Assembly: GCF_000497125.1 (NCBI RefSeq)
Contig: NC_090601.1
Span: 992,001 to 1,056,000, forward strand
Origin: Spironucleus salmonicida
Taxonomy: Eukaryota
Direction: 5' to 3'
DNA length: 64,000 nucleotides
Of the stretch, positions 21,546-64,000 are shown piece after piece. Positions within the stretch are counted from its first letter, which is position 1, and every line of letters starts with the position of its first letter. The position numbers and the translations under genes are program-made. Below the pieces are notes generated by a model. It was not told where the DNA came from. It worked only from the letters and a program-made list of their open reading frames with translations, and ran no database searches.

Positions 21546-21629
21546 GATTTTTAATGCTTGCGAGTCACTCGGCAGGAGGCATGGGGAGCACCAGGTCCAA
21601 CCCATTCATTCATTCGCTCACTCGCTCCC

Positions 21630-28926: not shown

Positions 28927-29268
28927 TAAATCTAGTGCAGCTGCGCCAGTGGGGGGAATGTGGTATTTGGTCATTCCAATGGTGGAATATCATTCTTTGG
29001 AGTCGGAACTGATGGTTTTTGCGAGAATAAGAACGCATTCTTCCGTGTTCCCGTAAACTGTATAAATATTAACAGCAGCGGTCTGATAGCTGCTGGGGGA
29101 GCGGACGGCACCATCTTAATATTGAGGATGTTTGATTATAAGATAGCAAGTTGTTGCGTACTGCGGGGCCATGGTGTGAAGAATTAAGTGGGAGTAACAG
29201 ATCTAGCATGGTTTGGCGATAATTTGGTAAGTTGTGCAGGTGATGGGACTGTGAGGATTTGGAGATGA
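28927..29268 (+). pseudogene. 3' fragment of BOP1 created by the inverted duplication
   Basis: Mirror of 26644-26985 (last WD40 repeats), lacking the 5' ~1.8 kb. Confidence 0.85.
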
Positions 29269-30443: not shown

Positions 30444-30683
30444 ATGAGGGCGCGCACGAGGTGGACGCACGAGCAGGAGGAGCAGCTGCGCCAGGCCTAC
30501 GCGGACTACTGCGGCCGCTGGGAGGTGATCCGCGACAACGCCTTCCGGGGGGCCACCGTGTCCCAGCTGAAGAACAAGTACTACAAGCTCGCCCGCGCCG
30601 AGCCCGTCGTGCTCAAGGCGGCCGGCGGGCTGGCCAACATCGCGCTGGCGGACATCCAGCTGCTGGCGAGGATGCTCGAGTGA
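30444..30683 (+). CDS. Mini-Myb protein, copy 3 (DYCGRW)
   Basis: Mirror of copy 2. Confidence 0.85.
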   Translation: MRARTRWTHEQEEQLRQAYADYCGRWEVIRDNAFRGATVSQLKNKYYKLARAEPVVLKAAGGLANIALADIQLLARMLE

Positions 30684-31079
30684 GAGTGGTGCTGCCTTCC
30701 GAAACCGGCCGAGGGGTTTCTTGGGTCTATTTTGGAAGCGCTTTTGGGTATTGCGCAGACCCCCATATAACAGCATCGCCGCTCTAAAATGGGAGCGCAG
30801 GCCACGCACCTTCCCCGGAAGCCCGCCTGCAGCCTCGGCCTCCAGCTCAGCGAGCTCATCAGCGCCACGGTCGCCAGCGAGCCGCTGTACACCGCCCGGC
30901 CGCTCTCCTCGGATCTGGTGGAGCTGGCGGAGCTGATGCTGTGCCAGACCTTCGGCCCGGAGGCGCTGCAGGCGGACCTCAGCGGTGCCGAGTGAGGGAG
31001 CGAGTGAGCGAATGAATGAATGGGTTGGACCTGGTGCTCCCCATGCCTCCTGCCGAGTGACTCGCAAGCATTAAAAATC

Positions 31080-31151
31080 CTCCTACTCCGGGAATCGAAC
31101 CCGGATCACTTGGGTGAGAACCAAGTATGCTAACCGTTATACCAAGTAGGA
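31080..31151 (-). tRNA. tRNA-Glu(CTC), copy 3
   Basis: Mirror of 24761-24832. Confidence 0.95.
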
Positions 31152-33731: not shown

Positions 33732-33971
33732 ATGACGGCGCGCACGAGGTGGACGCACGAGCAGGAGGAGCAGCTGCGCCAGGCCTACGCGGACTACGGC
33801 GGCCGCTGGGAGGTGATCCGCGACAACGCCTTCCGGGGGGCCACCGTGTCCCAGCTGAAGAACAAGTACTACAAGCTCGCCCGCGCCGAGCCCGTCGTGC
33901 TCAAGGCGGCCGGCGGGCTGGCCAACATCGCGCTGGCGGACATCCAGCTGCTGGCGAGGCTGCTCGAGTGA
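33732..33971 (+). CDS. Mini-Myb protein, copy 4 (MTARTRW..., two substitutions vs copy 1)
   Basis: Mirror of copy 1. Confidence 0.85.
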   Translation: MTARTRWTHEQEEQLRQAYADYGGRWEVIRDNAFRGATVSQLKNKYYKLARAEPVVLKAAGGLANIALADIQLLARLLE

Positions 33972-34368
33972 GAGTGGTGCTGCGTTCCGAAACCGGCCGA
34001 GGGGTTTCTTGGGTCTATTTTTGGAAGCGCTTTTGGGTATTGCGCAGACCCCCATATAACAGCATCGCCGCTCTAAAATGGGAGCGCAGGCCACGCACCT
34101 TCCCCCGAAGCCCGCCTGCAGCCTCGGCCTCCAGCTCAGCGAGCTCATCAGCGCCACGGTCGCCAGCGAGCCGCTGTACACCGCCCGGCCGCTCTCCTCG
34201 GATCTGGTGGAGCTGGCGGAGCTGATGCTGTGCCAGACCTTCGGCCCGGAGGCGCTGCAGGCGGACCTCAGCGGTGCCGAGTGAGGGAGCGAGTGAGCGA
34301 ATGAATGAATGGGTTGGACCTGGTGCTCCCCATGCCTCCTACCGAGTGACTCGCAAGCATTAAAAATC

Positions 34369-34440
34369 CTCCTACTCCGGGAATCGAACCCGGATCACTT
34401 GGGTGAGAACCAAGTATGCTAACCGTTATACCAAGTAGGA
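34369..34440 (-). tRNA. tRNA-Glu(CTC), copy 4
   Basis: Mirror of 21474-21545. Confidence 0.95.
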
Positions 34441-34527
34441 CTGCTAGCTATCCCGTGGTACGGCCTGCCGCTGCATCGCCCGTCCCTCCGCCTCACCAGG
34501 CACGCAAACCCCAAACGTCACTTCGCC

Positions 34528-35256
34528 TCAGATGCTGCACCCGTACACCCGGTTGTACTTCTCCGCCCGGTTGCGCCACTTGGCCGCGGTGTCGCCCCCG
34601 ACACCAAACGGGCCCGCCGCTGCCACCCGCGCCAGCGCGCACGGCGTCGCATCGCTGGCCTCCTGTGCCCATTGCTGCTTCGGCGCACCCTGGGCCTCCT
34701 GCTGCGCCTGGACCACCGGCTGTTGGGGCGCACTGACGCAGAACCCCTCTACCGTGATGACAATTCTCTCGAACTCGGTCCGGACCTCGATCTCGCCAAT
34801 GTGCGGAACGGGCGACAGCGCCTGCACCTGCAGGTCGCAGCCCGCCTTCTTGATGATCGCCGTGATGCGGAAGTGCTCCCTGCCCACCACTAGCCGGATC
34901 CGTAGGTCCTTCGAGTGCTTCTTCCCCGGGAGCATCAGCACCGGCAGGAGGAACGCGTCCTGGAAAATGAAGTGCTGCTGGAAGATCTGGAGCCCGCCGG
35001 CTGTCTGGGAGCCGGAGACCGACGACTACAGCGAGAGCGCGAGGGGCGTGGTCTGGCCATTGAAGGAAGCCTGGGACCGCTGGAACGAGTTCGCCAGCTG
35101 GTAGGCCGCCACCGGCGACTGGCTCAGGTTCTGCTGGATCAGCTTCGCAGAGAACCCCCGGTACTCTGGATAGAGCTGTTTGAGCGATGCTATGGTGTCC
35201 TGTGCGCTGGCCTCCGGAAGCTTTGCGTACCGCTCGGCTAGCAGGCGCTTGTTCAT
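34528..35256 (-). CDS. Hypothetical protein, 242 aa, right-arm copy
   Basis: Mirror of 20658-21386. Confidence 0.8.
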
Positions 35257-35393
35257 CTTTGGAAGTTGAGAAATAATAGTATTATATTATTAATAAGGAA
35301 TTGTAAAGATTGTAAGAATGTGTTCGAACTACGCTAAATTATGCGCAAATTTCTATGCATTCAGTATATTTTTATAAATAAAATAGTAATTCA

Positions 35394-36539
35394 TCAGTTG
35401 AATTTTGTTTAAATATCATCGGGTACTCTGCGACTATTTTTCTTCTTCATAAAGTACACCACGCCACCAATAACACCAATAACGACTACCACCGCGATAA
35501 CAATACCTACAATACCGCCTGTCCCAATCTTATTATTCGCAACGCACGCCTCGCCATTTCCAACCAGTTCAGTGTCGCAAGCCGCGCAGAGCGCTGGGAC
35601 GCCCATATTGCAGGACGAGCACCCAACGATGCCCATACACGCCGTAAAGGCCACACATTGCGACTTGTCCGGAGACAGTATGTAACCAGCCCTGCAGACG
35701 TCGCACAGGCGCTGGTCGTGATACCAGCAGGTCTCGCAGTTGGAGATCGCCCCCAAGCATATTGCCTCTTTGACGCATATCCTAGTGTCCCTGGCGCACT
35801 GCATTCCGTCCGGGCAGGCCTTTCCGGACCCCAGAACGCACTCGCAGGTCTTGCCGTCGAGCGCCATTTTGAGGTTTATCTGGCAGTTCTCGCAGACGTT
35901 GCTACTGTCGCATTTGGCGCAGTAAATATTATCACCGCACTTAGCCGCTACTTCGCACTGCCCATCTGCGTTCACCGTCATTCCGTTGTTGCAAAACTGG
36001 CACTTCTCGGGGTCCGTCTTGTTGCAGCGGAGGCAGTTCTGGACGTGCAGGCAGGCGGCCACGTTCACGCAGGCGCGCGTCGGGGAGCAGATCTCGTCCG
36101 ACTGGCAGCCCTTGCCAGAATTGACCGTGCACTCGCAGAGGTTGGTGGTGGAGTTAATCTGCATGTGTGCTGAGCAGGCCTCGCATTTGGTCGGGTCCGC
36201 GGTGGTGCACTTGTTGCAGTACGGAATGACGCCGCACGCGATTTTGATGCACTGCTTGGAGGTCGAGTCGAGGCCGTAGCCCGCCGCGCAGCTCGAGCAG
36301 TCGACCGAGTTCGTCTTACTGCACTTCGTGCAAAACGGATTCTGGCGGCACGCGCTTATGTTCGCGCAGGTGGAGGTCGCGGTGATGCACATTTCCTTAG
36401 TCTTGCAGGAGGCGTTTGTACCGCAGAGGCACTGGGTTTTGTCAGCGGTGAGCGTGTGGTTGGCACCGCAGGTCGCGCATAGAGCTGGGGTGGTAGAATC
36501 GCAGGATGTGCAGTTGGGGATAACCTTGCAGTCCGTCAT
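35394..36539 (-). CDS. Cysteine-rich membrane protein, 381 aa, paralog with a different cytoplasmic tail (KKKNSRRVPDDIQTKFN)
   Basis: Near-identical to 19378-20526 through the TM segment; reads through TAA to TGA at 35394-35396. Confidence 0.92.
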
Positions 36540-36960
36540 TTTGAATAGCTATTGCGGCATATATTGGCAATATTGATGTTTGGAATAAGCTTTAAGAATT
36601 ATACAATTGTATAATTTCAAATATTTCGATGTTAGAAAAGTGTAAGAATTATAAAATTTGGTTAAGGCTTAAAATAGTACAGTTTATTGCAAATAAATGG
36701 TTTTGATATTATTAGTTTTCTTTCCAAAAACACTTATGATTTAGATACTTATGATAAATCTAAATCAGTATGAGAGGTTAATTATAATATTGACATAAGT
36801 AAGTATAATAAAGAAAATATAAGATAAAAATTTAGAGTATAAATATAATAATATTATTAATTTTAAAAGTATTATTAAATTTGTTATATAAAAAATATTC
36901 AATGAGATGTATTTAGGGCAGAATATGAAGTTAATTATTATAAAAATACAATTTCTTGAG

Positions 36961-37890
36961 TCACTTAACATCAGTGTTAGCATCAAAATATCGGTTTATA
37001 CACTTTTGATCTTCTTCATATATCTAAATTTCACTTTAAACCTAACCAATAAGCACCATTCCCATACCAGAAATAACATACTCAGTTCCTGGTTTTACAT
37101 AGAAGCTATCACCTTTGCAGCGTTATGTTCCATCGATCATAGTGTTTTCTAAAACGAGAAGAACTTAAAACTTTTGTGCAAGAATTTTAATCGATCCTGC
37201 TAAAGAGACCTCATAAACACTGAAAAATTCACAAGAACTGAGCTGCTTTATAGCTGACTACTCACATTTTTCAACCTTCAAATTTTAGCTTAGTGGATCT
37301 TATTTATCAAATTTTAGCACTTTTAAAGCTGAAGTAACGTGCAGCTCTCGTGATTTTCCAAAGCTGTCCTTTCTGTTATAGTCATAAAGACGATATGTCG
37401 AGTTGCTATTTTACTACACTTCAGCTATCAAAATACCGGCACCAATTCCGTGGACAGTACCAGCTGGAACGAAGATGGCATCTCCCTTCTTGACTGGCTC
37501 ATAGTTGATATACTGCTCCAAATTTTCACTGTTTATTGCCTCTTCAACTAACTCTGCTGTCATAGTTTGGTTCCAGCCGTAAGCGATTTTAGCGTCTTTG
37601 ACAGCATCCAAAACGTACCACATTTCAGTTTTTCCGTTTATTTTGTCTGCAGGATGGACCTGAATTGACAGATTATCTTTAGCATCGATAAATTTGACTA
37701 AAAGTGGGAAATCCTCGCCTACGATTTCTGAGAATTTTTTATTGTCTTCAGTCCAGGACGGTCCGTCAGCTCTGCTAGATACAACCCATGCTTCAGCAAC
37801 CTTATCAAATGCGGTTTGGTAGTTGAATTCTTATTTGAGGCGGATTCCGCCCCAGAGGTAATTGGTAAGATGTGGTGTTAATTTTAACAT
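36961..37890 (-). CDS. manA: Mannose-6-phosphate isomerase, class I, bacterial (ManA/GmuF-like) type, 309 aa
   Basis: YLWGG, AEAWVVS, FPLLVKFIDAKDNLSIQVHP, GKTEMWYV, VPAGTVHGIG, EVQQNSNSTYRLYDYNR (QQ encoded TAG TAA), RELHV. Confidence 0.93.
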
Positions 37891-38141
37891 TTTAGGATGA
37901 TACTAGATATTTTAAATAATATATAATATTTTTATGCAACGAATAATTTGTTTAATAAACAATATTCATATATTAGGTTTAGCTAACTGTTTAATTTTAT
38001 CCAGTAACTGAGAATAACTAATGGTAGAAAAAACTACGTAATAGGTATAAAAAATTAAATTATGTTTTATAAAATATGATTATTACTTACTTTAAGTTCG
38101 GAATATAATTTTTTAAGTAAAATCAGATTTGTCCATTCCTT

Positions 38142-39104
38142 ATGAAATATTACATCGGGATTGACTTTGGTGGAACTAACATTGCTTCTGGCGTAGTTGA
38201 TGAAAATCACAAGATAGTCGGTACGCATTAAGTTAAGACCCTTTCTGAGCGCGACCCTATGCACGTAATTGCTGATATGGCTCAGTGTGCACGTGAAGCT
38301 GCTAAGAAGGCCGGCCTTGATTTTGATAAGGATATCGAGTGGGTAGGTATTGGAGCTCCTGGCACTATCAACGGAAAAGATGGTATAGTCGAATATTCCA
38401 ACAATATCAATTGGTTTAATGTCCCACTGGGCGATGAGCTCAAAAAAGCATTAAACAAACCAATTTATATGGACAATGACGCCAATGCAGCCGCTTATGG
38501 CGAATATATTGAAGGATCTGCTAAAGGCTCTAAAATCTTTGTCATGGTAACATTAGGGACTGGCGTAGGCGGCGGCATTGTCATCAACAACGAAATCTTC
38601 ACGGGATTCAACTCAGCCGGCGCCGAATTGGGCCACTAAGTCATAATCCTTGATGGCAGACAGTGCACGTGCGGAAGAAAGGGCTGCTTGGAGGCATACG
38701 CCAGCGCAACGGGCATTATCGCGCTCACGAAGGAAGTGATGGAGCAGCACAAGGAATCGCTTATGTGGAAGCTCGTAGACGGCGATTTAAGCAGAGTAAG
38801 CGGCCAGACGTGCTTTGACGGCAGAGAGAAGGGCGATAACGCTGCAAAGCTCGTCGTAGAGCAGTTTATCAAGTATCTTGGCTGCGGCCTAACTGATATA
38901 ATCAACGTCTTCTAGCCGGATTTGCTATCGATCGGAGGCGGTATTTCGGCTCAAGGAGACTGGCTCATTGAGGAGCTCAGAAAGTGCGTTTCCGAGCAGG
39001 TATTCACGAGATTCAGCAAGAGAAACACGAAGATCATCAAGGCCTCTTTGGGTAATGACGCCGGAATTATCGGCGCTGCGCTCCTCGGCCAGTCCGGAAA
39101 ATGA
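38142..39104 (+). CDS. glk: ROK-family glucokinase/hexokinase, bacterial type, 320 aa
   Basis: YIGIDFGGTNI, GIGAPG, MDNDANAAAYGE, TLGTGVGGG, AGAELGH, CTCGRKGCLEAYAS, IGGGIS, LGNDAGIIGAA; ORF-track pieces join via TAA/TAG. Confidence 0.95.
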
Positions 39105-39419
39105 CTGAAATTTGACTTTTACTCGCTGCTTAAATGCTTATAATTGCAGAAAAATCGCGTTATCGCTTTGAAACTACAGAAACTTGATCCGCATAAGCAT
39201 ATTTGGGATTCGAGTGACAACGATTTTCATGTCAAAATTTGAGCGGAAACTGCCTCCGCTGCAGTTTCTTCGAGCGCTTGAAGTCGTAAAATTCGTTGTT
39301 GCCTGCGGGGTAATTTTCAGTGAAAGTTTGCACGTAGCCGCTGAACGGTTAGTTTGGGGCTTTTCTGGTGAGATTTGGGGGTTCGTTAGTTAGTTTTTGC
39401 ATTTCGTGGAAAAATTTTG

Positions 39420-40064
<645 letters not shown>

Positions 40065-40083
40065 TGAATAACAATATTGGTAA

Positions 40084-40437
40084 ATGAAGAATCACTATTT
40101 TCGGGCAGCGACGGATTACCACGACGCGGCGCAGGCGATTGTCGCACAGTTTTCGTCCCCGGAAGATCCTAGAATCGTGACCATGCCGTCGCTGTGCGGA
40201 AAGGATTCGCGCTGTGGGGCCGCGCACGCAGCCGTTATGCTGCGGCCGGATTTGGAGGATCTGATTGTTTAGGAGTTCAATGTCGAAGCGGGCAGTGCGA
40301 ACTGCATCGAAATCCTGCGGCTCAAGAAGCTAACGTGCGTAGAGTGCGTCCAGCTTGTAGGGTAGTTCCTAGACGATTTCCTGGTAGACGAAAAAAAAAT
40401 TGCTCAGGATATTTGGTGGAAGGAAATGAAAGAGTGA
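40084..40437 (+). CDS. Hypothetical protein, 117 aa
   Basis: aaATG start, open in code 6 to GAGTGA; GC-rich against AT-rich flanks. Confidence 0.55.
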
Positions 40438-43236: not shown

Positions 43237-43569
43237 TTTCTTACTTTCTTATTAGTATTATTAATATAATTTTAAAGTATATAATAATCAAAATTAACCA
43301 CTCCATATTTCTATTATTAAATAATATTATATATAATTTAAATTTTGTTAGTAAAAATTTTTGTTCAGTAAAATTGTGCAAAAATCAATATTTAGATGAA
43401 CGAAAATCTTTCAGATTCGAGAGAGCAAAGTTCTCAGTTTCTGGTGAACCGATTTTTGCGGAAATTCAAATTATTTGCGTCCTCCGAACTTATAAACATT
43501 GTTCCTAATATGCCAATAGCTACTTTCACAAATTTTATAGTCATTATTTACATTATATATTTTCCCCAT

Positions 43570-43642
43570 GCTTCTATGGTGTAGTGGTTAGCACAGTGGA
43601 CTTTAGATCCACCAGACACCAGTTCGAATCTGGTTAGAAGTG
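43570..43642 (+). tRNA. tRNA-Gln with anticodon TTA (decodes reassigned UAA, possibly also UAG)
   Basis: GCTTCTA/TAGAAGT acceptor, Gln-like TGGTGTAGTGGTTAGCAC D arm, GTGGA-CT-TTA-GA-TCCAC anticodon arm (TTA at 43603-43605), ACCAGTTCGAATCTGGT T arm. Confidence 0.92.
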
Positions 43643-43958
43643 AATTTTTCAAATCACAAACTGCGCGTTCTAGCACCAGCGCTTCCTGGCGCAAACTTGA
43701 CGTGCTGACGCCACTGGAGTTTCGCACCTGAAAAGGCAATTTTGCTACGCTGAAGTGGCAGTCCGCGGCCCGTTCTGCGCGCATGTCTGGAAAACTTTTT
43801 AGAAGAAAAAACCTTTGCGAATTTTGAGGTAGTATGGATATAATAATAGTATATTTTTATAATGTGAAAATTTGAGAAAAGATGATTATATATGTATAAT
43901 AATTATTTCTAAAATTAAAAACCAATTATTATTATACTAATTCTATGAAGAGTCGAAA

Positions 43959-50884: not shown

Positions 50885-52657
50885 ATGGCCGATCCTGGAA
50901 CCTGCGTAGACTTCCTGAGCTCCTGCAAAGCGGGCTTCTACTGTCCCGAGGACGGATAGCCAGGCAGAAAATGCCTGGTGTGCTCCGAATAAACCGGCTA
51001 CTTCAACAGCTGCAACTGCTAGGACAGCGTCGTCACCCCCCACTGCCGCGAATGTACTGCCGGAGCCTGTACGGCCTGCGTGGACTCCACCTACTTGGAA
51101 AACGGCGCGTGCGAGGACTGCATTCCTGGCTGCGAGCGCTGCGTGGACGGCCGGACGTGTATTGCCTGCGAACATGGGTACCTCATGAACACGACAACAA
51201 ACAGGTGCGAGGCGGTCTGCAAAATGAACAGCGAATGCGATTACGGCGAGAACTAGTTCTGCGACCAGAGCAACAAAACCTGCAAGGCCTGCCGCAATAA
51301 TTGCGAGTTCTGCCTGGCTGACAATGTCTGCACGCAATGCAGCAGCAGGGACCACGCCCTCAACCACGACGGAACCTGCACCACCGAATGCCCGAATCTG
51401 CAGAACGGACAGTACTGCAAGAACGGCACCGCCATGACCTGCGCCCCTGGGCTCACTTCGGACTGCAAGTGCGGGTTTGCGATCAACTGCGCGTCCTGCA
51501 CCTCCTCCGGAAATTCTTGTGCAACATGCGTCCCGAACACTAGCAAGGATAGGGATGGGAAGTGTCTCGTTTGCGCAGAGGGCTACGAGCTGCTCAATAG
51601 CTCTTGCTGGCCCAAGAACAACGTCCCGCCGGTATCTGGTACCTGTTCCTCCGAGGTCTCAAGCTGCCGCGTGGGCTATTTCTGCGATGCCACGGGGACG
51701 AAGATTCTCCTCTGCAAGCAGTGCTCCGCCTCCATCAAGCCAGGCCAGGGATGCTACTGCACAGATGGCGTCGCTACGGCGGACTGCCTTTCGTGCAGTG
51801 GTGCGACGTGCGCGACGTGCATTTCTGGGAGCTTTTTGGCTGGCGGAAAGTGCGAGCGCTGCCCCGTGAACTGCGCGGTTTGCACGAATGCGGGAACGTG
51901 CACGACGTGCGCCACTGGGTACATTTCTGGCCTGGATGGGAAGTGCGTCCTGGCTTGCAAAGTCGATAAGGACTGCAAAAACGGGGTCGCGGAGTTCTGC
52001 GACAGGACGACCGGAAAGTGCGCATCATGCATCCAAAACTGCTAGACCTGCGTGGATAACTCGACGTGTAAGACGTGCAAATCTGGATACTCTCTGGTCC
52101 CTAGCGCCAAGCAGTGCATTGTGAGCTGTAGAAGCAGCCAGGACTGCTCCGGGGGTGTTTCGTAATTTTGCAACAGCGCCACTGGACTCTGCGGAAATTG
52201 CAGCGCAAACTGCGCCGCCTGCGCTTCTAGTACTGTTTGCAGCTCTTGCAGTGCAGGCTTCGTCGCAACGACGGCCGGAGTATGTGTTAAGGGGTGCACA
52301 GACTTTCAGAACGGGCAGTATTGCAAAGACGCCGCTGCAGCCAGCTGCGCAGAGGGTATCGACAGTCAGTGCAAGTGCGGGGATAACGTAAACTGTGCTA
52401 CGTGCGATTTGAAGACGGTTCAGTGCGAAAAGTGCCTGAAAGGCATACTTAAAGACGAATCTGGGAAGTGTATGAAGTGTCTCGCTGGGCATACACTAAT
52501 TGGATCAGTATGCTAAAAAGATCCTGATGTGCCTGTGGAGGATGGAAATAAGCTTAGCGGCGGCGCAATTGCCGGTATTGTAATAGCTATGATGGTGCTA
52601 ATTGGAGGAATTGGGTGTGGAGTTGTCTACTATTTGATGAAGCGCTATAAGAAGTGA
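50885..52657 (+). CDS. Cysteine-rich membrane protein (HCMP/CRMP-like), 590 aa
   Basis: Code-6 ORF with dense CXXC/CXC motifs, [30 protein letters not shown], tail MKRYKK, AAGTGA stop. Confidence 0.92.
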
Positions 52658-52764
52658 AATGTTTCCTTTTTATTGTTTAGTTAACTGAGTCAACGAATTT
52701 TTATTTTTTGTGTCTTGTATTATCGAAAATGTTAATATTTTTTACTCATTTTGATTTTATATGA

Positions 52765-53797
52765 TTATTATATTCATATGTATAACAAAAGTATTTTTGA
52801 ATGTAAATTGATTATCAGTTGCGTTGATGAAGTAGATGAAAATAACATTTACTATCTTAATTTATTGTAAATTTATATAGGAATGCAAACAGTTCGTAAT
52901 TATCTTGTTTAATATTGAAATAAATTTTTGATATTAACTGGTTATTTTAACTAATAACCCAGGCTATACTGATTCCGTAGTATAATAATAGAATATCTTT
53001 TATTTGTTCAGAGATAATATCTAAGTAGCTATACAAAATACTTTATGAATGTTAGAATGAAACCTAATAAAGTATATATTTTTACTGTATTATTATATAA
53101 TACAATAGTAAAATGTATGGTACTAATATATAATTCAAATAATGAATTTTAGCACTTAAGCTTTTAGTATTTTAAAATTTAACATCAATATATATTTTAA
53201 TACCTAAAAAATTAATCTTAAAGGAGTTAAGACCAAAGTAAAATTTGACGATAAAAAATAATAACACTATTGATATTATAATAAATAAATTTTATGACAC
53301 TAAGTTAGTCAAGATTCATTAAATCACAACTATAACATAGGATACATTAACTGCAAGGTGGCATTTTCATTACTAATAGGTTTCTAGATCCATAACATTA
53401 GATAGAATTTTCAACTACGTATTATTGACATTATATTACCTATTAGTTTAAATGTATAACTATATAGTATTAAAATTTAAAAAGATTTATCTATAGAAAT
53501 AGGCAGTATCAACTATGCATAAGTTTATTCAGCCAGAAATTTAAATAAAAGCTATTTCACTGACTTATAAATGATCCAGCTATTTTTGCAAAAATTTAAA
53601 TTATTAATCCCTTAAAATAATATTATGAACTTACTTGTAGTATATAAACCTCATAGAAGATATTATTTCATATGCATTCATATATAAGTTTACAATAAAT
53701 TAAGATAGTAAATGTTATTTTCATCTACCTCATCAAAGTAACTGATGAGAATCAATTTACACTCAAAATGCATTTTATTATAGACATAAATATAATA
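52765..53797. repeat. Diverged inverted repeat (core ~125 bp: 52765-52890 vs 53672-53797), either a decayed palindrome or a MITE-like element
   Basis: gtagatgaaaataacatttactatcttaatttattgtaaa is present as an exact reverse complement, with imperfect similarity extending on both sides. Confidence 0.75.
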
Positions 53798-54057
53798 GGA
53801 GTAAGTAGCTAAGTACAAAAACAACTTTCTGCTGCATTCAGTTTTAAACCCACCAAAGTCATTTTATGATAGTGTTGTCATCATAACAATGACTTGCCGT
53901 ATTTTAAATCGAAGCCGACTGAACCATACTTTTAGTAAGTATTACTTACTACTCCATTAATTGAATGCAGTCAAAGACAAATTTGATTAATAAATGATCA
54001 ATAAACATAAATATTAAATAAATAGAAACCCAATAGTTTAGAAAAATAACATAGCAA

Positions 54058-54109
54058 GCGGCCCGACCCGAAAGCGATTGCTTTAGAGATTGCTGGGCGG
54101 GTGGGTCGC
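54058..54109 (+). other. Isolated GC-rich stem-loop ~65 bp upstream of the pPolB region
   Basis: GCGGCCC(G)ACCCG pairs with CGGGTGGGTCGC, inner AGCGAT/ATTGCT, in strongly AT-rich flanks. Confidence 0.65.
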
Positions 54110-54174
54110 ATTAAACAAAATCAGAGCATCAAAATTATAGATCATTTTATTTATTTAAAATCAAAAAATAAAAT

Positions 54175-57100
54175 ATGATTAAAATAGTAAAAGCAAAAAG
54201 CTGTAATTTAACAAATTAATTTTTTAAACCCATATAAAATGTAGCTCAATCACACCAAACTTGTATAATCAGACACTAAAGGTATTCTATAAGCATTGTA
54301 ATAAGTTTCATAACAGTACTTGAAGAAAGAGATATCTCTTTAAGAGTATTACTAAAAATCATAGCAATATAAATTATAGCATCTTCATATTAAATTACTG
54401 AAATATAAAGTATCAAAAGATAACTTAAATTACAATGAAGCTATTCTCTTAAAATAACATATACTAAAATAAGAAAGATCAGGTCACACTAGCAATCAGA
54501 TAAAATTAAAATTGATTACTACACCAAATATTAAAAAGAATATAAGCACAGAACTATTTTAAAGGATTAAACAGAATAAACTAATAAATATTACTTTACA
54601 CTAAAAATACGTTTCACAACAATATAAAACTAGAGAAACTAATTTGTTAAACGCTAAAATAGAAAAATTTAAAGATGTACTTGAGAATCTATACGAATAC
54701 ACTTTAAGGAGTTATTTCCGAAAACTGACTTAAATAGATATATAATATACTTACTACTATTAAGGAATCAGATTCAAAAATTAAAATTAATGAATAAGTA
54801 TATATTATGATTAATTTAATGTAGATAACGTTAAGTTGAATTAAAGAATTAATACCGAGTGTAGCTTACCATAAATGAATTTACCACGTAGCGAAACGAT
54901 AGAATAGTTTTTAATTGAATTCGATAGAAATTTGTCTTTTACAGTTCACGCAGGCGAAACCTTTACATGTCAGCAAGATAGAGTTAACGGAAATATTAAT
55001 TCATTCCTTTTTATAATAATATAATATATCGTTTACAATAAAAAATTATACACATTATTTTGTTAAATTAAAACTAAGAGAAAGAGGTTTAAATACAAAC
55101 ATTTAAAGAAATAATGGCGGATAGTACAAAAATTTGCTGTATAAAGAAATTTAAAGGGTGAATTATCATTTTCAAATATTGGTATTAAGCAAGTTTTAGA
55201 GATTAATATTGATGATTTAGTTGAGTCTTTGTTTGAGGTATTTGAAATGTTCTATAAGATGTTTAATGAATGGGATCCGACTTATGACTACGGATTTTAA
55301 ATAGGCTTACTTCGCAAAAATTCAGGAAATGCATATGAAGAAGATAAATAAATAAAATATCTTTATAAAAGATCAATATTCTTTGTTAGAAATAATGATG
55401 AAAAGTGTTTATATGCAGCAATAATTTCAGCATCCATTAAAAAAACAACTTATTGTTAATGGTAAATATACTTTTAAAATTAATAATTAAATATACATGA
55501 TTCCTAAAGATGCATTCAGTCATGGAAGATAACTTAGAAACTATTCAATAAATGTAAAAGTTATAACTTATATTTCTTTACTTAGTTATTATTTGGATTT
55601 ATAAGCATTGTTGGAGATGATTTATCAGGGGAGGAAATAGTTTAAAGAGCAGAAAGCGTATTCGAATTAAATATACTAAGATTAACATTAGCAAATTAAA
55701 ATGATATCTTACCATCTCGTACAGAAGATTTATTACTTGTTCAAAACAAAACAGCGAATTACAAAGGGCATTACAATGTAATTATGGAATATAAATAATA
55801 CGTAAATACTATCAAACCACTCTACAAAGATTATAATTATTGCTACTAACATAGATTGTTTACATACCGTAGAAACAAATGTAAAAACTGTGTTCTAGTA
55901 GGAGCAGTTGATCAAGAATATTATTGTTAGCTCTGTTGTTACAAACATGAATTGGATTAAAATAACATGAATCATTAATGCGAGAATTGCAATATTAGAG
56001 TAAACCATGAACCTAATACTAAATGCTTAAAAAGAAATAATGATATTTGTTAATTATTTACGCCTTGTGTTAATTGTGGTAGGATTCATAGTAGTATGAG
56101 TAACTGCTATGCAAAATTATAACATGATGAGTTATACTTTAAAGAAGGGCTGCTTAAGAAAGATTAAAAGTCATACGTAGTTTGGGATATTGAAAGCTAC
56201 TTTGAAAACGTTCCAGAAGAATTAATAGACAAAGCTTCAATGCAACACATACCGTTTTTAGTATCTTGGTATATAATGAAATATGATAGAGCGAAGAATG
56301 AATATACTTAACAAGACTTCTTTTATAAAAACAACCTTACGTTTATACAACATGGTACCTTTACTCCATCAAATGATTAATTCTTAATTAAGTTTATTGA
56401 TCATATGAAACTTGTAGATATGAAATATAAGGTATACGATTTCTACGCTCACAATGCAGCTGCATATGATAATTATTTATTACTATCTGAAGTATCAAAA
56501 TACGGAGTTGAAAACTATAAGACTGACACTATAATTAGTAATAACAAACTACTTCAACTAAAATTGATAATATATATTTTAAAGATTCATTTAGAATCAT
56601 TCCTATGCCACTGTCTAAATTAAATAAAGACTTAGATTTGAGACTTGTTGTAGGAAAACAGCTGCAGTCATATACGTACCTGACTAAAAACATGTTTGAT
56701 TAATTTATTGAAAGAAGAGGTAAACTAATGACCATAAAACAACTTGTAGATTCAAACAACCTATAGTTAAAACATTTTAATAACTTGTCAAAAGATGAGT
56801 TTGAATAGTACGTAATTGACTATGGGCATATTGACTATGTTACTTAATACGTAAACTACTGCATTCCAGACTGTTTCGTTTTAGCTGTAGCAATAAGGAA
56901 GTAAATTGAAATCTCACTTCAGGAATAAAAAGTCAACATCATTAATTATTTAACAGCACCAGCAATGGCTATGAACTTAAATACTCATCATTGTGTTTCA
57001 TAATTATAAAATGGATTCTAAGATTTAAAACATAACAAATCTAAATGTGAATGCAAGTTGTCTTAATTAATTTAATAAGATATTTAATTAGTAAATAAAT

Positions 57101-59094
57101 TATTAGATACTGGTTTTAATAAATATCAAATGTTTTATATAACTAGCAATTCAAAGGATCAAGATACAGCATTGACATGGTGTTAACGGCTGATAATAAG
57201 AAATATGGGCTTGAGTTAGATGGTACCTTTTATCATGGATTAAAAGAACTAAGTTGCAAAGATGAATATCATATATTATAACATGAAAGATTAGAAGCTC
57301 ATAATAATAAAACTTAAGATTTAAATGATAAAGTAAAACTCAATGGCTTCGTGTAAATATTTCACGTAACTCACAAGCAGTGTATACAATTCGAAAAAGA
57401 TAACAATGTAAAGATAGAAGTACCTAAACGCTTTGACATAACCAACAGATCAATCTTGACTGAAGGAAGAGCATAGTGCTTTACAGATCACATGAAAATA
57501 AACAAGAAGAAGTTTAAGATGTACGGAATTGATTTCATATAGCTGTATCCATCTGCAATGGTATTTAGGAACTGGCCATTAAGTGATTTAGTTATTGGAA
57601 CGCATTACGGAAACACTATTTATGATTCAACAATACACGACGAGTATAATATTAATTAATTCAAATTTAAAATAGATTAAAAGTATATTGATTAAGTAAA
57701 GTAGTATGTTAAATAGATCCCAAGAATCATTAACTCCGAAGCAATGCTGTAGTACTTCTTATAAGGATGTGATAACCATAAAAGATTGATCTAAATCAAA
57801 TGTCAAATGCTTCCTCCATAGTTATTAAAGTACCCAGTTTTAGGAACTAACATTTGTGCTAAGTTACTATATCCACTTTGCAGAACATGTTCGGAATAGA
57901 AATGCTTAGATGTAAACAATCATGCACGTTACAACCACAATGAAGATGAAATAATACTTACAGGAGTATGGCATGGAACTGAATTGATAAATGCTTTATA
58001 CGAAGGACATAAGTTCGGGGAGAAATACGAGGCACACACTTACTAAACATCAAGTTTTAATGATAACTAATATTAAGGAGGAAACTTCATTAATTCATAG
58101 ATGTTCAACAAGACAATGAACTCAGATCAAGATGATTATAAGGATGAAGCTGTACTAAAGCAATTAGCAAATGATTGTAACTTTGACTATATTTATAACG
58201 ATGGCATAGCATCAATCAAATAAAAGAGTGGAGTTGAATATAGGTAACTTAAACTAAACCAAGGAGTAAAGACCTTCTATACACTATTGTTAAATTCAAC
58301 GTATGGTAAGACAGGCTAGAATGTTGTAATACCAACGGAGTCGTTTGATAAGGGTGAATTCCTTTTTGGTATGCATGACGAAGAGCTGCATAAGAATTAT
58401 AAATTGAATTAATTGGATAAGTATGATTAAGAATACTTATGCATACGAATAAGAGTTGTAATAAACATAAAGAACCTAATCAAATGCATCCTTGGCAGGA
58501 ACGATAACAACAGTAGCAAGAACTATGCGTTATACATTAATAAGATATGTAAATGATGAATTAAAAGGAACTGTCTTATACGCTGATACAGATTCAGTTT
58601 ACTGTGTTTTAGATAGAGTAAAGTACACAAACTTAACTTCAGTAACATTCAAGAACACATACTCTTGCAAATGCGAATAGAAACTTGATCCAAATGAATG
58701 GGTTTGTATAGGAGCGAAGTAATATGCATATACAGATGGAGTTAGATATGCATAAACACCAAAAGGTATCACCTTAGATAAAACAGGTATTATTGAAGTA
58801 GAGGAAGGGAAGCTTGTTCATGTGTTCGATATTTATAAACCAATACTGTTTGATTAAATATAGGTTAACGAGGACGGTAGTATTTAAAAGAGAGACTCAA
58901 ACGCTGAGACAAAAGTAAAACAAGATCTAAACTTTATAAGAGATAATAAAATATATAACATATACACTCACACAAGATATAAAGTAATTAGGTAATAGTA
59001 ATAAAAGAGGCTTATTGATTTTAGTTCAAGAGTTGATTAAATATCAACATTGCTTTTTGGATATGATAAAGTATAATCACGATTTTATAATATG
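54175..59094 (+). pseudogene. Protein-primed family B DNA polymerase (Polinton type) with N-terminal OTU-like and Zn-finger regions and an inserted PD-(D/E)xK/Vsr-like nuclease; several frameshifts
   Basis: Code-6 motifs: KRSIFFVRNNDEKCLYAAI (~55400), GHYNVI (~55770), Cys/His clusters, ExoI WDIES (56183), ExoII HNAAAYD, FKDSF, ExoIII YCIPD, IDM...ELDGTFYHG (~57200), PolA DFIQLYPSAM (57531), KLLYPLCRTC...LTGVW, PolB LNSTYGK, PolC YADTDS (58579), GAKQY, KGIT, KR...TLLFGY. Frameshifts at ~54800, ~56560, ~57150 and ~58450-58490; the 5' start is uncertain. Confidence 0.9.
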
Positions 59095-59120
59095 AATCAT
59101 TTTTTTAATCTATAATAAAA

Positions 59121-59472
59121 ATGGAGAATCAAGAAATCTTTTTTTCCAAGTCTCGATAGCATAGCTGGATATCATTATCTACGCTAGCTGTAGCTGTTCT
59201 CATTAGATGAGGTATCATACTTATCAAAGTTGGTATATTTGAACTTCTAATAGTACTCATGGCCAACCCTAAGTAAGTTAGTAAAAAAATAAAAAACAAA
59301 TGTTAAATACTTAAAATAATAAGGTAGTATAAAACTCAATAAAACTATTATCGACAACTCGAAAGAAGAGTTAGGATACTTAAATTAACTCATTAAACGA
59401 CTTGAAAAGTTTATTGAAATTTCTACAGTTTTTGATGTAATAACAGAATTATCCAGCTACTATGAGGCGTGA
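59121..59472 (+). CDS. Element ORF2, ~116 aa, unknown function (one extra T in a T-run at ~59140)
   Basis: aaaaATG start MENQEIFF, then PSLDSIAGYHYL...ELSSYYEA* in the shifted frame. Confidence 0.5.
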
Positions 59473-59505
59473 ACAAAGCTATATTTTTTAATTAATAAAA
59501 CAACC

Positions 59506-60472
59506 ATGCCAACAAACTCAATTGACACAAATATAAATGAATAAAATAATTCAACTAATTCAACTGATACAAATATAAAATTCAAAAAATTAAAAGATAA
59601 CTATGAATACACAGACGATACAAAACGAGATAACGCAAGATACTAACAGATGAATAAAAACAAGAAAGATTACTTAAGAAATAAAAATTATAAAAAGATA
59701 GGCTACCCAAAGATGATTGAAGTAAAATAGAAAAATAAATAAATAAATAATTTAATAATCAACATTCCAAAATATTGATACACTAACAGAATTATAAAAC
59801 AGTTTAAAATAATTTAAAGATGAATTATTTTCAAAATTTGAAAGTTAAGACAGCTCAAAATGTAAACATAAGTTGAATCAGTCACAAACATAAAAAAGGA
59901 ATCAGATTCGCATTAACAAGTCAGGGAACAACCGATTTAATAACAATCTGGAAAGCCATAGTTTTTCTGGTCCTAAAGGGACCAATTAACAACATATTAA
60001 AGTTTATAAGCAAGATTTAAATGAATTAATTATTCAAAATCATTTTTTAATTAGTAAAATAAATATTGCAAATTAAATTAATAAAGGAGCAGACATAGCT
60101 ACAGATGCAGGTTATCAACTTATTAATAAATTAAGTCTAAAAGATCAAACTAAAGATAACTCAGGCAGAGTGTTAGACATAGCAAACAGGTTTACAAAAG
60201 ATATGGCATATTCAGGATCATTGCATAACGCAAATAAAATATAACCAGAAACATTGCATGACTCAAACAAGATACCACCACAGTAACTATAACAAACAGC
60301 AAAACAATAAAGATAGATCAGATTAAGATCTGGTTGGGAGAGATTCAAATCGGGATTCAAAGCTGTATTTAAACCAATTGCAAGTTTTGGAGCTAACTTA
60401 CTAAACTTCATACCTGGCGTTGGTCCAATACTATCAGCTGGAGCAAAAGGACTTATAGGTTTAATGAAGTGA
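59506..60472 (+). CDS. Element ORF3, ~320 aa (frameshift ~59750), ending in an amphipathic Gly-rich peptide
   Basis: C-terminus RLRSGWERFKSGFKAVFKPIASFGANLLNFIPGVGPILSAGAKGLIGLMK*, with AAGTGA stop. Confidence 0.6.
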
Positions 60473-60669
60473 ACAATAATATTAATTATCATTCAATTTT
60501 TTGGATCCAATTGAATTGATTACATATATTATTTTATCAATAGATTCCGTAACGCAAATTTTCGTGTTACAAATTTTCTAATTTATGAATAAAATACTAA
60601 TATACTTTCTACTTGCACATTAACTATACTTCCAGCTTGCTTTGCAAAGTGATAATCTTAACAAATGCA

Positions 60670-61990
60670 TCACTATTACCTCTTTTATAAAATAATATTT
60701 TATTCCTATAACATTTATAGATTGGCGTGCTTTATTTCAGCGTCTTTACACGGTGACACGACTGCGTACTTTCTCTTCTTGACAGCTGCAGCCACAGCAA
60801 TGAACATCACCCCCAAAGAACGACCCCAGTGCTCGAACTGTTCCTGTCTGGAATGCACAGCCTATCGATCCTCTGGAAAGCATGATAGCAGCATTAGCTC
60901 TTATTGCTGCCAACTAACACCCCGTTGACGTACTTATATCATTCCATTCCCCAGGAGTGCTGCAGAACGCGCAGTCCTTTTAGCATTTCGCGCGCACGCT
61001 CCCCGAGCGATTCCTGGAACAGCAAAAGCTCTGGGGGCAAGGCTTGCTGTTCGAGCTTTTTGGTAGTGCTAAGGGCGTACCCGTCCTTGCACTAGGTGCA
61101 GATATATTTGTCAGGACAGATATTCCAACCATCTGTGCAGAGTTTGCAGCCAGCATTTTATAAAAAGGCACCGTCTGGATATGGCGAGCAAGAAGTTACG
61201 CCTATATATGGGGTGTGTCAGTTTTTGCAATTCTGGCATGCATTTGGGGGGTAGTGCAGAACTTTTTAGCACATTTGACGTTTTGGAGGTCAAATCCTGC
61301 CATGATAAGACCACAAGCTGAGGCTGATACGCATCTAAAGTATTTTCAGTGCATATAGTGCATTTGCTTGCTTCCAAAAAATTTTCACTTTTGCATGAAG
61401 TATAGATGGATGAGTCAGAGCAGGCCTCACAATTACTGGGGCAGGCCTCGCATTCTTCTTGTTTCAGTACGAAGGCGATTTAGCACTTGGTGCACACTCC
61501 AGCAGACAAGCAGGGGAGGCAGTTGGAAGGGCATGCGACGCAGATATTTCCGCTGAGGACGTATCCGGCCTGGAACTCCGAGCACGTGCTCATACCGGAG
61601 CATTTGCTGCATCCACTGATACAGGTGGAATATATGAACTGGGCGTTGTGGCAGTACCCAGTGGCACACACTGCATTTTCCTGACTCAAAGCAGTCCTCT
61701 CAGTGATTGGGCAACTTGTACAGGGGATTCCGCTGAAATAGTAGCCCACGGAGCACAACGTGCAGTCTATGGCATTGACACACATTTTTCAGTCCTTGTT
61801 GCAGGCCCTGCAGTTATCCCCGCTCTTGTAGTATCCCAAGCTGCATTTCTGACATGTGTCCTTATTGGAAATACTGAATTTATCACAGTTATATTATCTG
61901 CCACTTTAGCAAATTTCAGGATTGATGATATCTCTGGTTGGGCAAACAGTTCCAGTAGGACATGTATTTGTGGGAGATTGATAACCGGAT
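60670..61990 (-). pseudogene. Decayed cysteine-rich membrane protein gene
   Basis: CXXC repeats (CVNAIDCTLC, CISGCSKC, CPSNCLPC) spread over several frames, an in-frame TGA at 61789-61791, and a shortened TM segment before KKRK. Confidence 0.7.
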
Positions 61991-64000
61991 ATTTTAAAAC
62001 GAACAGGAGTAAAAAGATGTAGTATTAAATCCAAAATATAAGTTATTATTTTATTATGTTTTGATTTTTATAAAGATTAAAAATACTATATGAATATCAA
62101 TTATAAAAAATATATAAATCTTTAGTAAATATCAATTATAGAGACAAACATTTACTTAAACTATCAAAACTAAACTATATGTTAATATATTATTAATAAA
62201 CTAAACTTTTTATTTTCGAAAATACTAATTATTTAGTAGATGCATATTGAATTAGTTTATGTTACAAATGATGTGCTTATCCAAATACCTATTTAGAATA
62301 ACCCCTACACTTCTCTAATATTGCAAAAAGTATATTGTGGACTGTAATATATTCAAAATACTAAGTCGAGTTAATGCGATTGTTGCTTAGGTTGCTCGTA
62401 CCACCTAAAATTCTGACTAAAATTATATGATAAAATTAAAGAAAGTATAAAGTTATGCAACTAAAACACGAAAATATATTTCATGAACATTAGAGAAATT
62501 ATGCATGAAACAATATCAACAAATAAATGCATACTTATAAATATATTGATAACGCGTAAGGCAAGCTATATACATACTAAAACACGTCCATTATAAACTT
62601 ACAACTTCACTAAATATCTAAATAGATGCTTAACTTTAAAACTTAATGAACAATTCGTAATCAAGTATATCACCAAAAATATAGTATGATGTTAGTATAG
62701 TTATTATTTAAGCAATGGGGAGCAAGTGGCATATAATCTAATTATCTCTATTGCCGTCGAAATATTTTATATAAAGGCATTTTAGAGGAGTTAATAATAT
62801 TTTATATAAAATACTATATATTATACTTGAGTCTACTTGTCTAGTTAAAATGGTATGTGGATTTGGCGTTTTGCTGACTACTATTTTATATTTTACGATA
62901 TACGAAACTTCCTATATTATATTTTATGCGTCATACTTATACTAGATGCGCCGTGTTACTAACCATTACCACGATTTGCCACACCTTATTGCCGATATAC
63001 TCAAACGAGTAAGCGAACCTTGCTTGATACTAAACAGGTACATTTGATCTATGCTAGCAGCATACTGCCTGTATAGTCTATGTTGCTTATATTTTTATTT
63101 TAAATAAGTAATCATATATGAAATTTGAAACAATAATACTATACAAAGATAGCTTGACATTAGATATGTGGAACATCACTCCAATATCTCATTTACTTCA
63201 TTACTATCTTAATGCAAGTACACTTGTTGCTACCACTGCAACGATAGTTATCAAGCTTATGATTACCCAAAAGTAAATCAAAATAATACTTTTTTGGTCT
63301 ACTATGACATTCAGACTAAGCTGATAGTCGTACTCGTTAGTAATAAAAATACGCGTTATAAATGATTTTTTAAGCTCTTGTATAAAGCCCTTTTGCCGGA
63401 CATGGTAGTCTCCAGGAAAGAATGGAAATTGGCTATGTTCAATCGTATCAGCTTCACTAAAGCACTCAGTAAAAAAGCTCTTATTCTAGATTACTAACCT
63501 CTTCTTATATACTTAGAATTGAATTCTTGACTGTGTGTCGGACGTCATTTACAAAACCTCCTGCTGCTAGGTTAGCACTCCATCTTTGTATTTATCTAAG
63601 CACTCCGGGGTCAAAGTGGGGAATACGATTATGCAAGTATCCTTGAAGCTTACTTAAGTAATAATTTTATAAAAACAGGACTGAATGGGTGCATATTCAA
63701 TAGTTTACTCTGAAATAATTTCCTGGTTTGCGTCATAAAAGCTTATAAATAGTTATTAAGTTTGCCCAGTTAAATTTTGCGTCAATAAAGACATATTCTC
63801 AACATCAAAAAAGAATACAATCCCTGTTCTTTCGGCGAAACCATTTGTTGCCTCTTGTCTTACCTATTATGTTTTCTAAAATACACTTGTTGCCATGATA
63901 AAGCTGCTGCTAATACATGTTTTCAAGCTTGAAAGATCAGCTATGTTTTAGATGGCCGTCGATGTTACTATGGTTATTAGATTTAGATCAGTAATACAGT

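Follow-up and report, generated by a model that had tools for sequence, protein, structure and literature searches.

A probable pseudogene of a Polinton/Maverick- or adintovirus-like DNA polymerase in the TAA/TAG = Gln code of the diplomonad Spironucleus salmonicida

We analyzed a 64,000-nucleotide window of the Spironucleus salmonicida genome (contig NC_090601.1, forward-strand positions 992,001 to 1,056,000), to whose positions all coordinates below refer, and focused on a plus-strand locus that holds the parts of a protein-primed DNA polymerase of family B (pPolB). An initial annotation, made from the letters alone, had placed here a Polinton-like element written in the non-standard code of its host, and had left it between a minimal capsid-less element and a truncated virus. 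It had also described the gene as nearly invisible under standard stop codons. This was indeed the case, since translation with table 11 yielded no open reading frame (ORF) of at least 80 amino acids from 52,493 to 60,144 on either strand. Reading TAA and TAG as glutamine (Gln), as in genetic code 6, revealed four long open frames on the plus strand rather than one ORF:

54794-56638 (+): code-6 open frame, frame 2, 615 codons
56527-57456 (+): code-6 open frame, frame 1, 310 codons
57051-58553 (+): code-6 open frame, frame 0, 501 codons
58408-59469 (+): code-6 open frame, frame 1, 354 codons

All of the pPolB motifs named in the initial annotation could be located in these frames. The modules follow one another in the order vOTU-like protease, Cys/His zinc region, exonuclease motifs Exo I to Exo III, Vsr-like insert, polymerase motifs A, B and C, KxY and a C-terminal FGY. 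Homology switches frame three times along the gene, which gives four segments joined by three frameshifts:

54875-56559 (+): pPolB segment 1, frame 2
N-terminal ~160 amino acids of segment 1 (+): position of the terminal-protein domain in relatives; a terminal-protein part is not recognisable here
~55364-55810 (+): vOTU-like module of segment 1, with Cys in NNDEKCLYAAI and His in GHYNVI
~55805-56113 (+): Cys/His zinc region of segment 1
56177-56197 (+): Exo I, VVWDIES, with DIE at 56186
56444-56470 (+): Exo II, HNAAAYD
56555-56569 (+): frameshift 1, from frame 2 to frame 1
56560-57119 (+): pPolB segment 2, frame 1, carrying the FKDSFRIIPMPLSKL block and Exo III
56857-56874 (+): Exo III, YCIPDC, in segment 2
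57114-57123 (+): frameshift 2, from frame 1 to frame 0
57120-58421 (+): pPolB segment 3, frame 0
~57144-57380 (+): Vsr-like endonuclease insert in segment 3, the Y.ID...LELDGTFYHG block
57525-57554 (+): motif A, GIDFIQLYPS, in segment 3
57861-57890 (+): KLLYPLCRTC, in segment 3
58275-58322 (+): motif B, LLNSTYGKTGQN, in segment 3; Lys replaced by Thr (ACA), Gln written as TAG at 58317
58420-58421 (+): frameshift 3, from frame 0 to frame 1
58420-59073 (+): pPolB segment 4, frame 1
58576-58596 (+): motif C, YADTDS, in segment 4
58711-58731 (+): KxY, GAKQYAY, in segment 4
59047 to 59064 (+): C-terminal KR...TLLFGY, in segment 4
59074-59472 (+): run-on tail of ~131 more open codons, with TGA at 59470-59472

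No homology to polymerases was found in the run-on tail (59074-59472).

The relationship of this gene to known polymerases was assessed by sequence searches and by profile comparison. A word-based search with segment 3 retrieved three long proteins of Pfam family PF03175 (E = 1e-10, 5e-7 and 1e-3), and the same kind of search with segment 1 against the longer proteins gave no match. Exhaustive phmmer comparison of segment 3 with 1.84 billion proteins returned 627 matches at E ≤ 1e-3. Every non-diplomonad relative tested passed PF03175 (6/6 in one set, 21/21 in another), and relatives that pass this family connect to the locus through phmmer at E values of 1e-10 to 1e-14. We aligned 21 full-length PF03175 polymerases (~1,250-1,650 amino acids) into a profile of 1,346 positions, A1; the named non-diplomonad relatives of segment 3 come from a beetle, a sandfly, a damselfly and a spider, and some of them lie outside A1. 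In hhalign, all four segments were colinear on this profile, spanning positions 209-1312:

Segment 1, residues 191-592 on A1 209-579: probability 97.8 %, E = 8e-13
Segment 2, residues 10-150 on A1 575-707: probability 92.4 %, E = 5e-7
Segment 3, residues 32-432 on A1 759-1096: probability 99.2 %, E = 1e-19
Segment 4, residues 10-222 on A1 1128-1312: probability 94.9 %, E = 4e-8

Segment 1 matches 19 invariant columns, namely the Cys and His of the vOTU-like module, 12 Cys/His of the zinc region, the D/E of Exo I, the H/D of Exo II and one Gly. The Exo motifs of the locus align with the invariant D551/E553, H644/D650 and Y770/C771/D774 of the profile, and motifs A, B, C and KxY are all present and aligned, with Gln at the Ser of motif A and Thr at the Lys of motif B. 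The sole direct match of the locus to a polymerase was that of segment 4 to the PHROG 1907 DNA polymerase (E = 7e-6).

When the A1 profile was compared with PDB sequences, it matched phi29 DNA polymerase (E = 1.3e-7). Its positions 360-445 matched C2H2 zinc fingers (E = 1.7e-6), and positions 771-846, a region across which segment 3 aligns, matched three Vsr endonuclease chains (E = 0.003). Positions 206-317 matched a 175-residue N-terminal fragment of a viral polymerase (6dx3_A, E = 0.02), which we take to be a nairovirus OTU domain. The only direct match of the Vsr-like insert of the locus in the Pfam scan was PF18741 at E = 0.025; among the 21 relatives in A1, the Pfam Vsr family matched one (E = 0.27) and RAP matched three. 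A search of IMG/VR with the A1 profile identified 17 loci, two of which were examined for neighbours. Both lie on contigs of 13-15 kb: in L001 the polymerase adjoins a Pox_A32-type packaging ATPase (E = 4e-11), and in L002 it adjoins an rve integrase (E = 2.4e-6, under the Pfam cut-off). Neither IMG/VR nor JGI metagenomes yielded a close relative when scanned with single sequences. Collectively, these comparisons support the assignment of the locus to the Polinton/Maverick/adintovirus-type protein-primed PolBs, as first proposed, and not to cellular PolBs; judged from sequence, the locus pPolB is a member of the family by descent, with a catalytic set that is not intact.

Several results weigh against this assignment. 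In a direct Pfam scan, none of the four pieces of the locus matched PF03175 at E ≤ 0.1, and all stayed below the gathering threshold; an HMM scan against this family, which had been suggested as a check, was thus passed by the relatives and failed by the locus itself. The paralogues P0155 and P0004 likewise had no PF03175 match at E ≤ 0.1, and phmmer of the locus pieces against PDB chains gave zero matches. Family membership would therefore be carried by transitive and profile evidence. Structure prediction was of no help: AlphaFold2 models had a low mean pLDDT (55.9 for segment 1 with 22 alignment rows, 47.0 for segment 3 with 31 rows), too poor for TPR1 and TPR2 to be judged. Foldseek found nothing in the PDB at E ≤ 1e-3 with these low-confidence models; in BFVD it returned adintovirus, MELD virus, bidna-like and adenovirus polymerases, with pieces of adintovirus PolB at E = 1.6e-6, but with template modelling scores of at most 0.19 we treat these as a hint only. 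Lastly, the tree described below (120 rows, 190 columns, IQ-TREE quick search, LG+G4) lacks adenovirus, virophage and plasmid references, and it is the architecture and the neighbours, rather than a rooted phylogeny, that would carry the label "Polinton-type".

We also considered in which genetic code the gene had evolved. Its homology-supported frames contain 62 TAA and 19 TAG and no TGA in 1,402 codons, compared with 94 TGA in the 2,796 codons of the other two frames. The lack of TGA is in part a product of choosing open frames; this does not apply to the lengths of the open runs, for which the off-frame TGA rate predicts ~30 codons. Within the 961 profile-aligned codons there are 53 TAA/TAG codons. 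At these 53 columns the references have fewer Leu/Ile/Val and more Glu/Asn/Lys/Ser/Asp, and their enrichment in Gln is weak (0.050 versus 0.035, permutation p = 0.096). The initial annotation had singled out three TAA/TAG codons inside motifs as Gln-compatible. This held for the motif B Gln (TAG at 58317), which is Gln in 20/21 references, and did not extend to the other two sites, neither of which is a conserved Gln: the TAG-encoded Q of DFIQLYPS sits where the references have an invariant Ser, and the paralogues keep that Ser.

The same code is required by the host BOP1, MFS transporter, ROK kinase and mannose-6-phosphate isomerase genes in the window. TAA/TAG make up 78 % of Gln codons in the locus pPolB, 78 % in host BOP1 and 59 % in the four host genes pooled. 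The window also contains a tRNA gene:

43569-43643 (+): host tRNA with anticodon UUA, which reads TAA, labelled "tRNA-Stop" by ARAGORN

Its body presumably resembles that of tRNA-Gln, and a decoder of this sort is what the reading of TAA as Gln would lead one to expect in this host. Because of the length of the open runs, the codon counts, the TAG in motif B and the host-like share of Gln codons, it is well supported that the locus pPolB was shaped as a translated coding sequence in a TAA/TAG = Gln (code-6) cell. The code evidence and the named Spironucleus and Hexamita paralogues agree with the earlier proposal of adaptation to a code-6 diplomonad host.

The closest relatives of the locus are annotated protein fragments of S. 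salmonicida itself (55-98 % identity), followed by Hexamita inflata:

P0166: S. salmonicida, annotated "Transmembrane domain-containing protein"; 98 % to segment 1; cluster of 7 sequences
P0006: S. salmonicida; 82 % to segment 3
P0005: S. salmonicida; 81 % to segment 3
P0004: S. salmonicida, 668 amino acids; 55 % to segment 3, E = 2e-147
P0007 and P0008: S. salmonicida; among the best segment 3 matches
P0010: Hexamita inflata; 47 % to segment 3
P0011: ranks after P0010 among the segment 3 matches

P0004 and the members of its cluster bear the UniRef name "DNA-directed DNA polymerase" and are hypothetical at NCBI; the polymerase family is already in protein databases as unrecognised fragments. 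In the tree, a single branch (SH-aLRT 97, stem 0.65) separates 8/8 diplomonad rows from the others. Support within this clade is 99 for the group of six Spironucleus rows, 93 for the pairing of the locus with P0006 and 89 for that of Hexamita with P0011.

We next examined the state of the copy at the locus, using the paralogues and short-read contigs from runs X1 and X4 (DNA, from one sample) and X5 and X6 (RNA only by guess). Frameshift 1 is common to the 98 %-identical P0166, which ends in the same out-of-frame tail, ...LKLIIYILKIHLESFLCHCLNQIKTQI. Contigs of X5 and X6 cross junctions 1 and 2 without a gap. Frameshift 2 is absent from the paralogues that span its site: P0005 and P0155 keep one frame across junction 2, and in tblastn of both proteins the frame 1 alignment stops at 57123. 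In the DNA run X1, one contig at this junction (56940-57264) matches the locus exactly and without a gap, and another, paralogous one (26 differences) carries an extra base after 57119. Short-read contigs independent of the window therefore confirm junctions 1 and 2. At junction 3, P0155 follows frame 0 up to 58421 with its residue 489 and goes on from 58420 in frame 1 with residue 490, and P0008 behaves alike. We rejected programmed -1 frameshifting at junction 1, for which a U_UUA_AAG-like heptamer occurs just downstream of the frame change. Because the heptamer lies beyond the frame change, and because the paralogues stay in a single frame through junctions 2 and 3, we read the breaks as mutations.

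Two substitutions were noted in the catalytic motifs: the invariant Lys of motif B is replaced by Thr (K1183T), and the Ser of motif A by the TAG-encoded Gln. The end of the gene is altered as well. Two paralogue contigs cease to match at 59075 and 59078 and have a TGA two codons on, after ...FGYDKV; this stop position reads CGA at the locus, where the frame stays open on to 59470. The alignment of P0157 reaches 59070 of the locus. A sharp 3' boundary at 59075 was considered. Beyond this point, the loose ends of the paralogues resemble the locus no more than chance would give (score 18, equalled by 9 % of random windows), and a breakpoint at 59075 and a point change plus divergence both fit. 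Because of the three frameshifts, the Lys to Thr change in motif B and the missing paralogue stop, the locus copy is predicted to do nothing as a polymerase and not to be an autonomous element.

Other copies carry lesions of their own. P0155 and P0004 have motif A Asp replaced by Gly, motif B Gly replaced by Ser and a KxY without Lys, and their C-terminus is out of frame from the equivalent of ~58.9 kb. P0005, which with P0006 represents two ORFs of a single copy, has Exo III Asp replaced by Tyr. The diplomonad pPolB copies thus now appear to decay independently, each with its own lesions. We infer that copy number grew at least partly through host-side duplication of dead copies, because the 98 %-identical P0166 shares frameshift 1. 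The N-terminus of P0166 (MSADRVNG) reflects a variant at 54,975 that differs by one base in length; this variant and three nearby substitutions are present in X4, X5, X6 and P0166, and X1 has the version of the locus. Since X1 and X4 come from the same sample, two near-identical copies or alleles coexist.

We put the probability at roughly 0.8 that the locus holds a pseudogene of the polymerase from a Polinton/Maverick- or adintovirus-like double-stranded DNA (dsDNA) element, from a lineage in code-6 hexamitine diplomonads. Some observations at the locus pull the other way. The contigs matched to 58235-58624 are all paralogue-like, and frameshift 3 could be an assembly error. The catalytic carboxylates of Exo I to Exo III and of motifs A and C are all retained, as are 56/80 of the columns invariant in the references, which makes the copy either a young pseudogene or one that worked until recently. 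Contigs of X5 and X6 cover 54764-58827 in pieces, and a transcribed, possibly used product of the locus is possible. The same contigs are absent from 52871-53954 and 58833-60700, which we do not take as evidence of silence.

The surroundings were searched for further genes of an element. The window alternates between GC-rich genes for cysteine-rich membrane proteins and AT-rich stretches, and the polymerase lies in an AT-rich island of ~8 kb (52.66-60.65 kb), bordered on the left by a cysteine-rich protein gene whose stop is at 52657 and on the right by a minus-strand VSP-like gene (~60.7 kb). The polymerase block has 23-32 % GC, and the neighbouring cysteine-rich protein genes 56-59 %. Ten flank ORFs of the island were scanned, of which six on the plus strand and one on the minus strand (59172-60254) are distinct and the others overlap. 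They matched no Pfam family at E ≤ 0.1, including rve integrase, packaging ATPase and protease, as the initial annotation had also noted. Genes for double jelly-roll or minor capsid proteins were likewise not found by Pfam in these ORFs, although Pfam is weak for such proteins. No inverted repeat was found to pair the two sides of the polymerase gene, as terminal inverted repeats would. The orphan ORFs named in the initial annotation lie within 59473-60472:

59506-59778 (+): orphan "ORF2"
59717-60472 (+): orphan "ORF3", ending in AAGTGA (final codon 60470-60472)

The host-type AGTGA ending described for ORF3 is thus present. Neither ORF has a Pfam family at E ≤ 0.1. In the DNA runs X1 and X4 they occur only in their own contig (59003-60674), at the lowest depth of the 8.1 kb examined. 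Over 55.3-59.1 kb several contigs are stacked that share 90-99 % identity, with no paralogue contig of at least 90 % on ORF2/ORF3; summed contig depth is not copy number. ORF2 and ORF3 are not shown to be part of the polymerase unit.

Two structures lie upstream of the gene. The only long pair of inverted repeat arms near it (52766-52887 and 53673-53797; ~120 nucleotides, 81-93 % complementary) is wholly upstream and encloses ~0.8 kb just 3' of the cysteine-rich protein gene. Short-read contigs break at these arms (52842-53718), which may be a foldback or an insertion resembling a miniature inverted-repeat transposable element. A GC-rich hairpin (54058-54109, plus strand) stands in the 25 %-GC upstream spacer, near the left end that the initial annotation gave the element. 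Its fold (54040-54125) has a free energy of -31.2 kcal/mol (z = -4.9; 0/200 shuffles equal), its sequence is unique in the window, and short X5/X6 contigs cover 53955-54274. The hairpin overlaps no Rfam match at E ≤ 1; the only Rfam match in 52000-62500 is a weak snoZ267 (53765-53840, E = 0.61, under the gathering score). The hairpin could be a small RNA gene.

Three other explanations were weighed. We regard it as improbable that the locus belongs to a domesticated or still useful host gene family, in which the cell uses either the whole polymerase or its N-terminal vOTU/zinc/exonuclease half (annotated as 557 amino acids). Such use would fit the X5/X6 contigs on 54764-56371 and 56503-57572, with none on the flanks, the 565 open N-terminal codons with every invariant Cys/His and Exo residue kept, the several copies of this half at 90 % identity or more (the cluster of 7), and the precedent of Entamoeba (PMC3511435). 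However, the tail that closes the N-terminal ORF is out of frame, each copy has its polymerase half broken in another way, a pattern of neutral decay and not of conservation, and the RNA nature of X5 and X6 is a guess.

Less probable still is an intact and possibly active pPolB-only element, minimal and capsid-less like linear plasmids or transpovirons, whose frameshifts are assembly errors. The retained catalytic Asp/Glu, the multi-copy polymerase family, the island devoid of further element genes and a frameshift 3 spanned by paralogue-like contigs are all compatible with it. Junctions 1 and 2, however, are reproduced in independent short-read contigs, both versions of junction 2 occur within one DNA run, frameshift 1 recurs in the annotated P0166, motif B has Thr for Lys, no terminal inverted repeats flank the gene, and other copies hold different inactivating changes. 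With the paralogue-type stop missing and ORF2/ORF3 having neither a family nor a paralogue of at least 90 %, the minimal element first suggested is not supported, and its alternative, a truncated or decayed virus remnant, fits better. A contaminant or chimeric join, suggested by a 23-32 % GC block between cysteine-rich protein genes of 56-59 % GC that might be foreign to this chromosome, can be set aside with near certainty, since host housekeeping genes in the window share both its AT-richness (32-38 % GC) and its code, the polymerase is linked to both flanks by DNA contigs from two runs (53815-55279 and 59003-60674), and the paralogues are annotated proteins of the same species.

For the pseudogene reading, we propose the following course of events. 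A lineage of Polinton/Maverick- or adintovirus-like elements would have colonised hexamitine diplomonads that read TAA/TAG as Gln. From what is known of the family, the ancestral protein was probably a self-contained replication enzyme that copied a linear element from a protein primer. Besides an N-terminal terminal-protein primer and a vOTU-like cysteine protease thought to free the primer part, it likely had a region of zinc fingers, an exonuclease acting 3'-5', an inserted Vsr-like endonuclease and a polymerase of the phi29 type. The gene would then have evolved under translation in a code-6 cell, within the diplomonad-only clade, and its copies would later have decayed independently, the dead ones partly multiplied by host-side duplication. 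The locus copy may be transcribed.

This gene can be compared with several described systems, for which we draw on the accessible portions of the papers cited. Polinton pPolBs combine a terminal-protein domain, vOTU, exonuclease and polymerase (PMC11161782), and the module order and motifs of the locus are like those of the Polinton/Maverick (Polintoviricetes) and adintovirus enzymes in that source. The locus also keeps the vOTU-like Cys/His, the zinc region and a C-terminal end of the KR..T.P.GY type, and its nearest non-diplomonad relatives are arthropod genomic copies and the 13-15 kb viral contigs with ATPase or rve. Unlike them, it uses code 6, is frameshifted and has no recognised terminal-protein part; integrase, ATPase, protease and capsid genes and terminal inverted repeats were not found beside the polymerase, and a stem branch of 0.65 leads to its diplomonad-only clade. 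A VSR endonuclease insert has been described in one pPolB2 subgroup, from mollusc and marine-nematode Polintons (PMC10748475, as far as its accessible text goes). The locus has a Vsr-like block (Y.VDG ... EF.GC..HG) between Exo III and motif A, but the Cys of GC..HG is Thr here (DGTFYHG).

Entamoeba histolytica, another parasitic protist, has four family B2 polymerases of Polinton origin that stand alone, with no integrase, protease or ATPase (PMC3511435). Several polymerase-only copies with none of these genes found alongside are common to both organisms; the Entamoeba enzymes, however, are intact and one is biochemically active, whereas the Spironucleus copies are broken. In the oxymonad Streblomastix strix, endogenous viral elements use TAA/TAG = Gln as their host does (PMC10120064, available text). 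That system likewise has a metamonad host, the same reassignment and integrated Polinton-like virus genes in the host code, but its elements were found via capsid genes, and the diplomonad locus shows a polymerase only and belongs to another host lineage.

The initial annotation was not aware of such elements characterised in diplomonads. For Spironucleus and Hexamita this stands, in that no description was found: literature searches linking Spironucleus, Hexamita or diplomonads with Polintons or Mavericks gave nothing substantive within the searchable library, incidental mentions only, and the main text of two diplomonad genome papers is silent on such polymerases (PMC9509377, PMC11787283), the latter reporting "29 DNA transposons" for S. 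salmonicida without detail. It does not stand for Giardia, since a Giardia intestinalis sequence is included in a published pPolB tree (PMC4642659, Fig. 6 legend) and Polinton-Maverick polymerases of G. lamblia are mentioned in PMC3511435. Giardia thus resembles Spironucleus in being a diplomonad genome with a Polinton-type polymerase (PMC4642659), but it has the standard code, and no Giardia sequence was identified among the matches of the locus.

Elsewhere in the window, a 22-nucleotide tandem repeat occupies 418-10293 (consensus TGCTCCTGGGCTGGTACCTCGC, ~452 copies, 83 % matches, 66 % GC), with a strong skew of T over A; because its unit has no stop codon, ORF listings contain 3,000-codon "ORFs" on the minus strand. 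A perfect palindrome at 13285-18788 has arms of 2,678 nucleotides, a spacer of 148 nucleotides and a tRNA-Leu(AAG) in each arm. Nested inverted repeats at 19343-36574, with 97-100 % arms of up to 2,856 nucleotides, surround the BOP1-like gene and contain four copies of tRNA-Glu(CTC). Both sets may be real palindromes or an artefact of long-read assembly. At 36961-39104 a bacterial-type ROK sugar kinase (E = 2e-71) adjoins a type I phosphomannose isomerase; both have in-frame TAA/TAG, and they look like typical diplomonad genes of bacterial ancestry. Next to the kinase gene, long trinucleotide-type simple repeats (39229-40437, plus strand, 19 % GC) read as poly-Leu, poly-Tyr and poly-Ile.

The locus reveals no new kind of element, a Polinton-type pPolB pseudogene being ordinary in kind. 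For annotation, it means that several "hypothetical" and "transmembrane domain-containing" Spironucleus proteins are fragments of one polymerase pseudogene family. Hexamitine diplomonads join the hosts of Polinton-like elements, with a virus-derived gene translatable only where TAA/TAG = Gln (it has 81 of these codons, among them the conserved Gln of motif B, and no TGA). Because the diplomonad-only clade spans Spironucleus and Hexamita, the tree points to an old association of the two genera with the element and not to recent uptake from an animal host. It is possible, though we hold it only tentatively, that Spironucleus and Hexamita have, or recently had, their own code-6 lineage of Polinton/adintovirus-like dsDNA viruses, of which the Spironucleus copies would be fossils and of which complete copies with capsid, ATPase and integrase may persist in genomes, most likely in the 142-Mb genome of Hexamita inflata, or circulate as particles. 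If true, DNA viruses would for the first time be linked to diplomonads, and metamonads would have a second, independent case of a virus lineage bound to a reassigned code.

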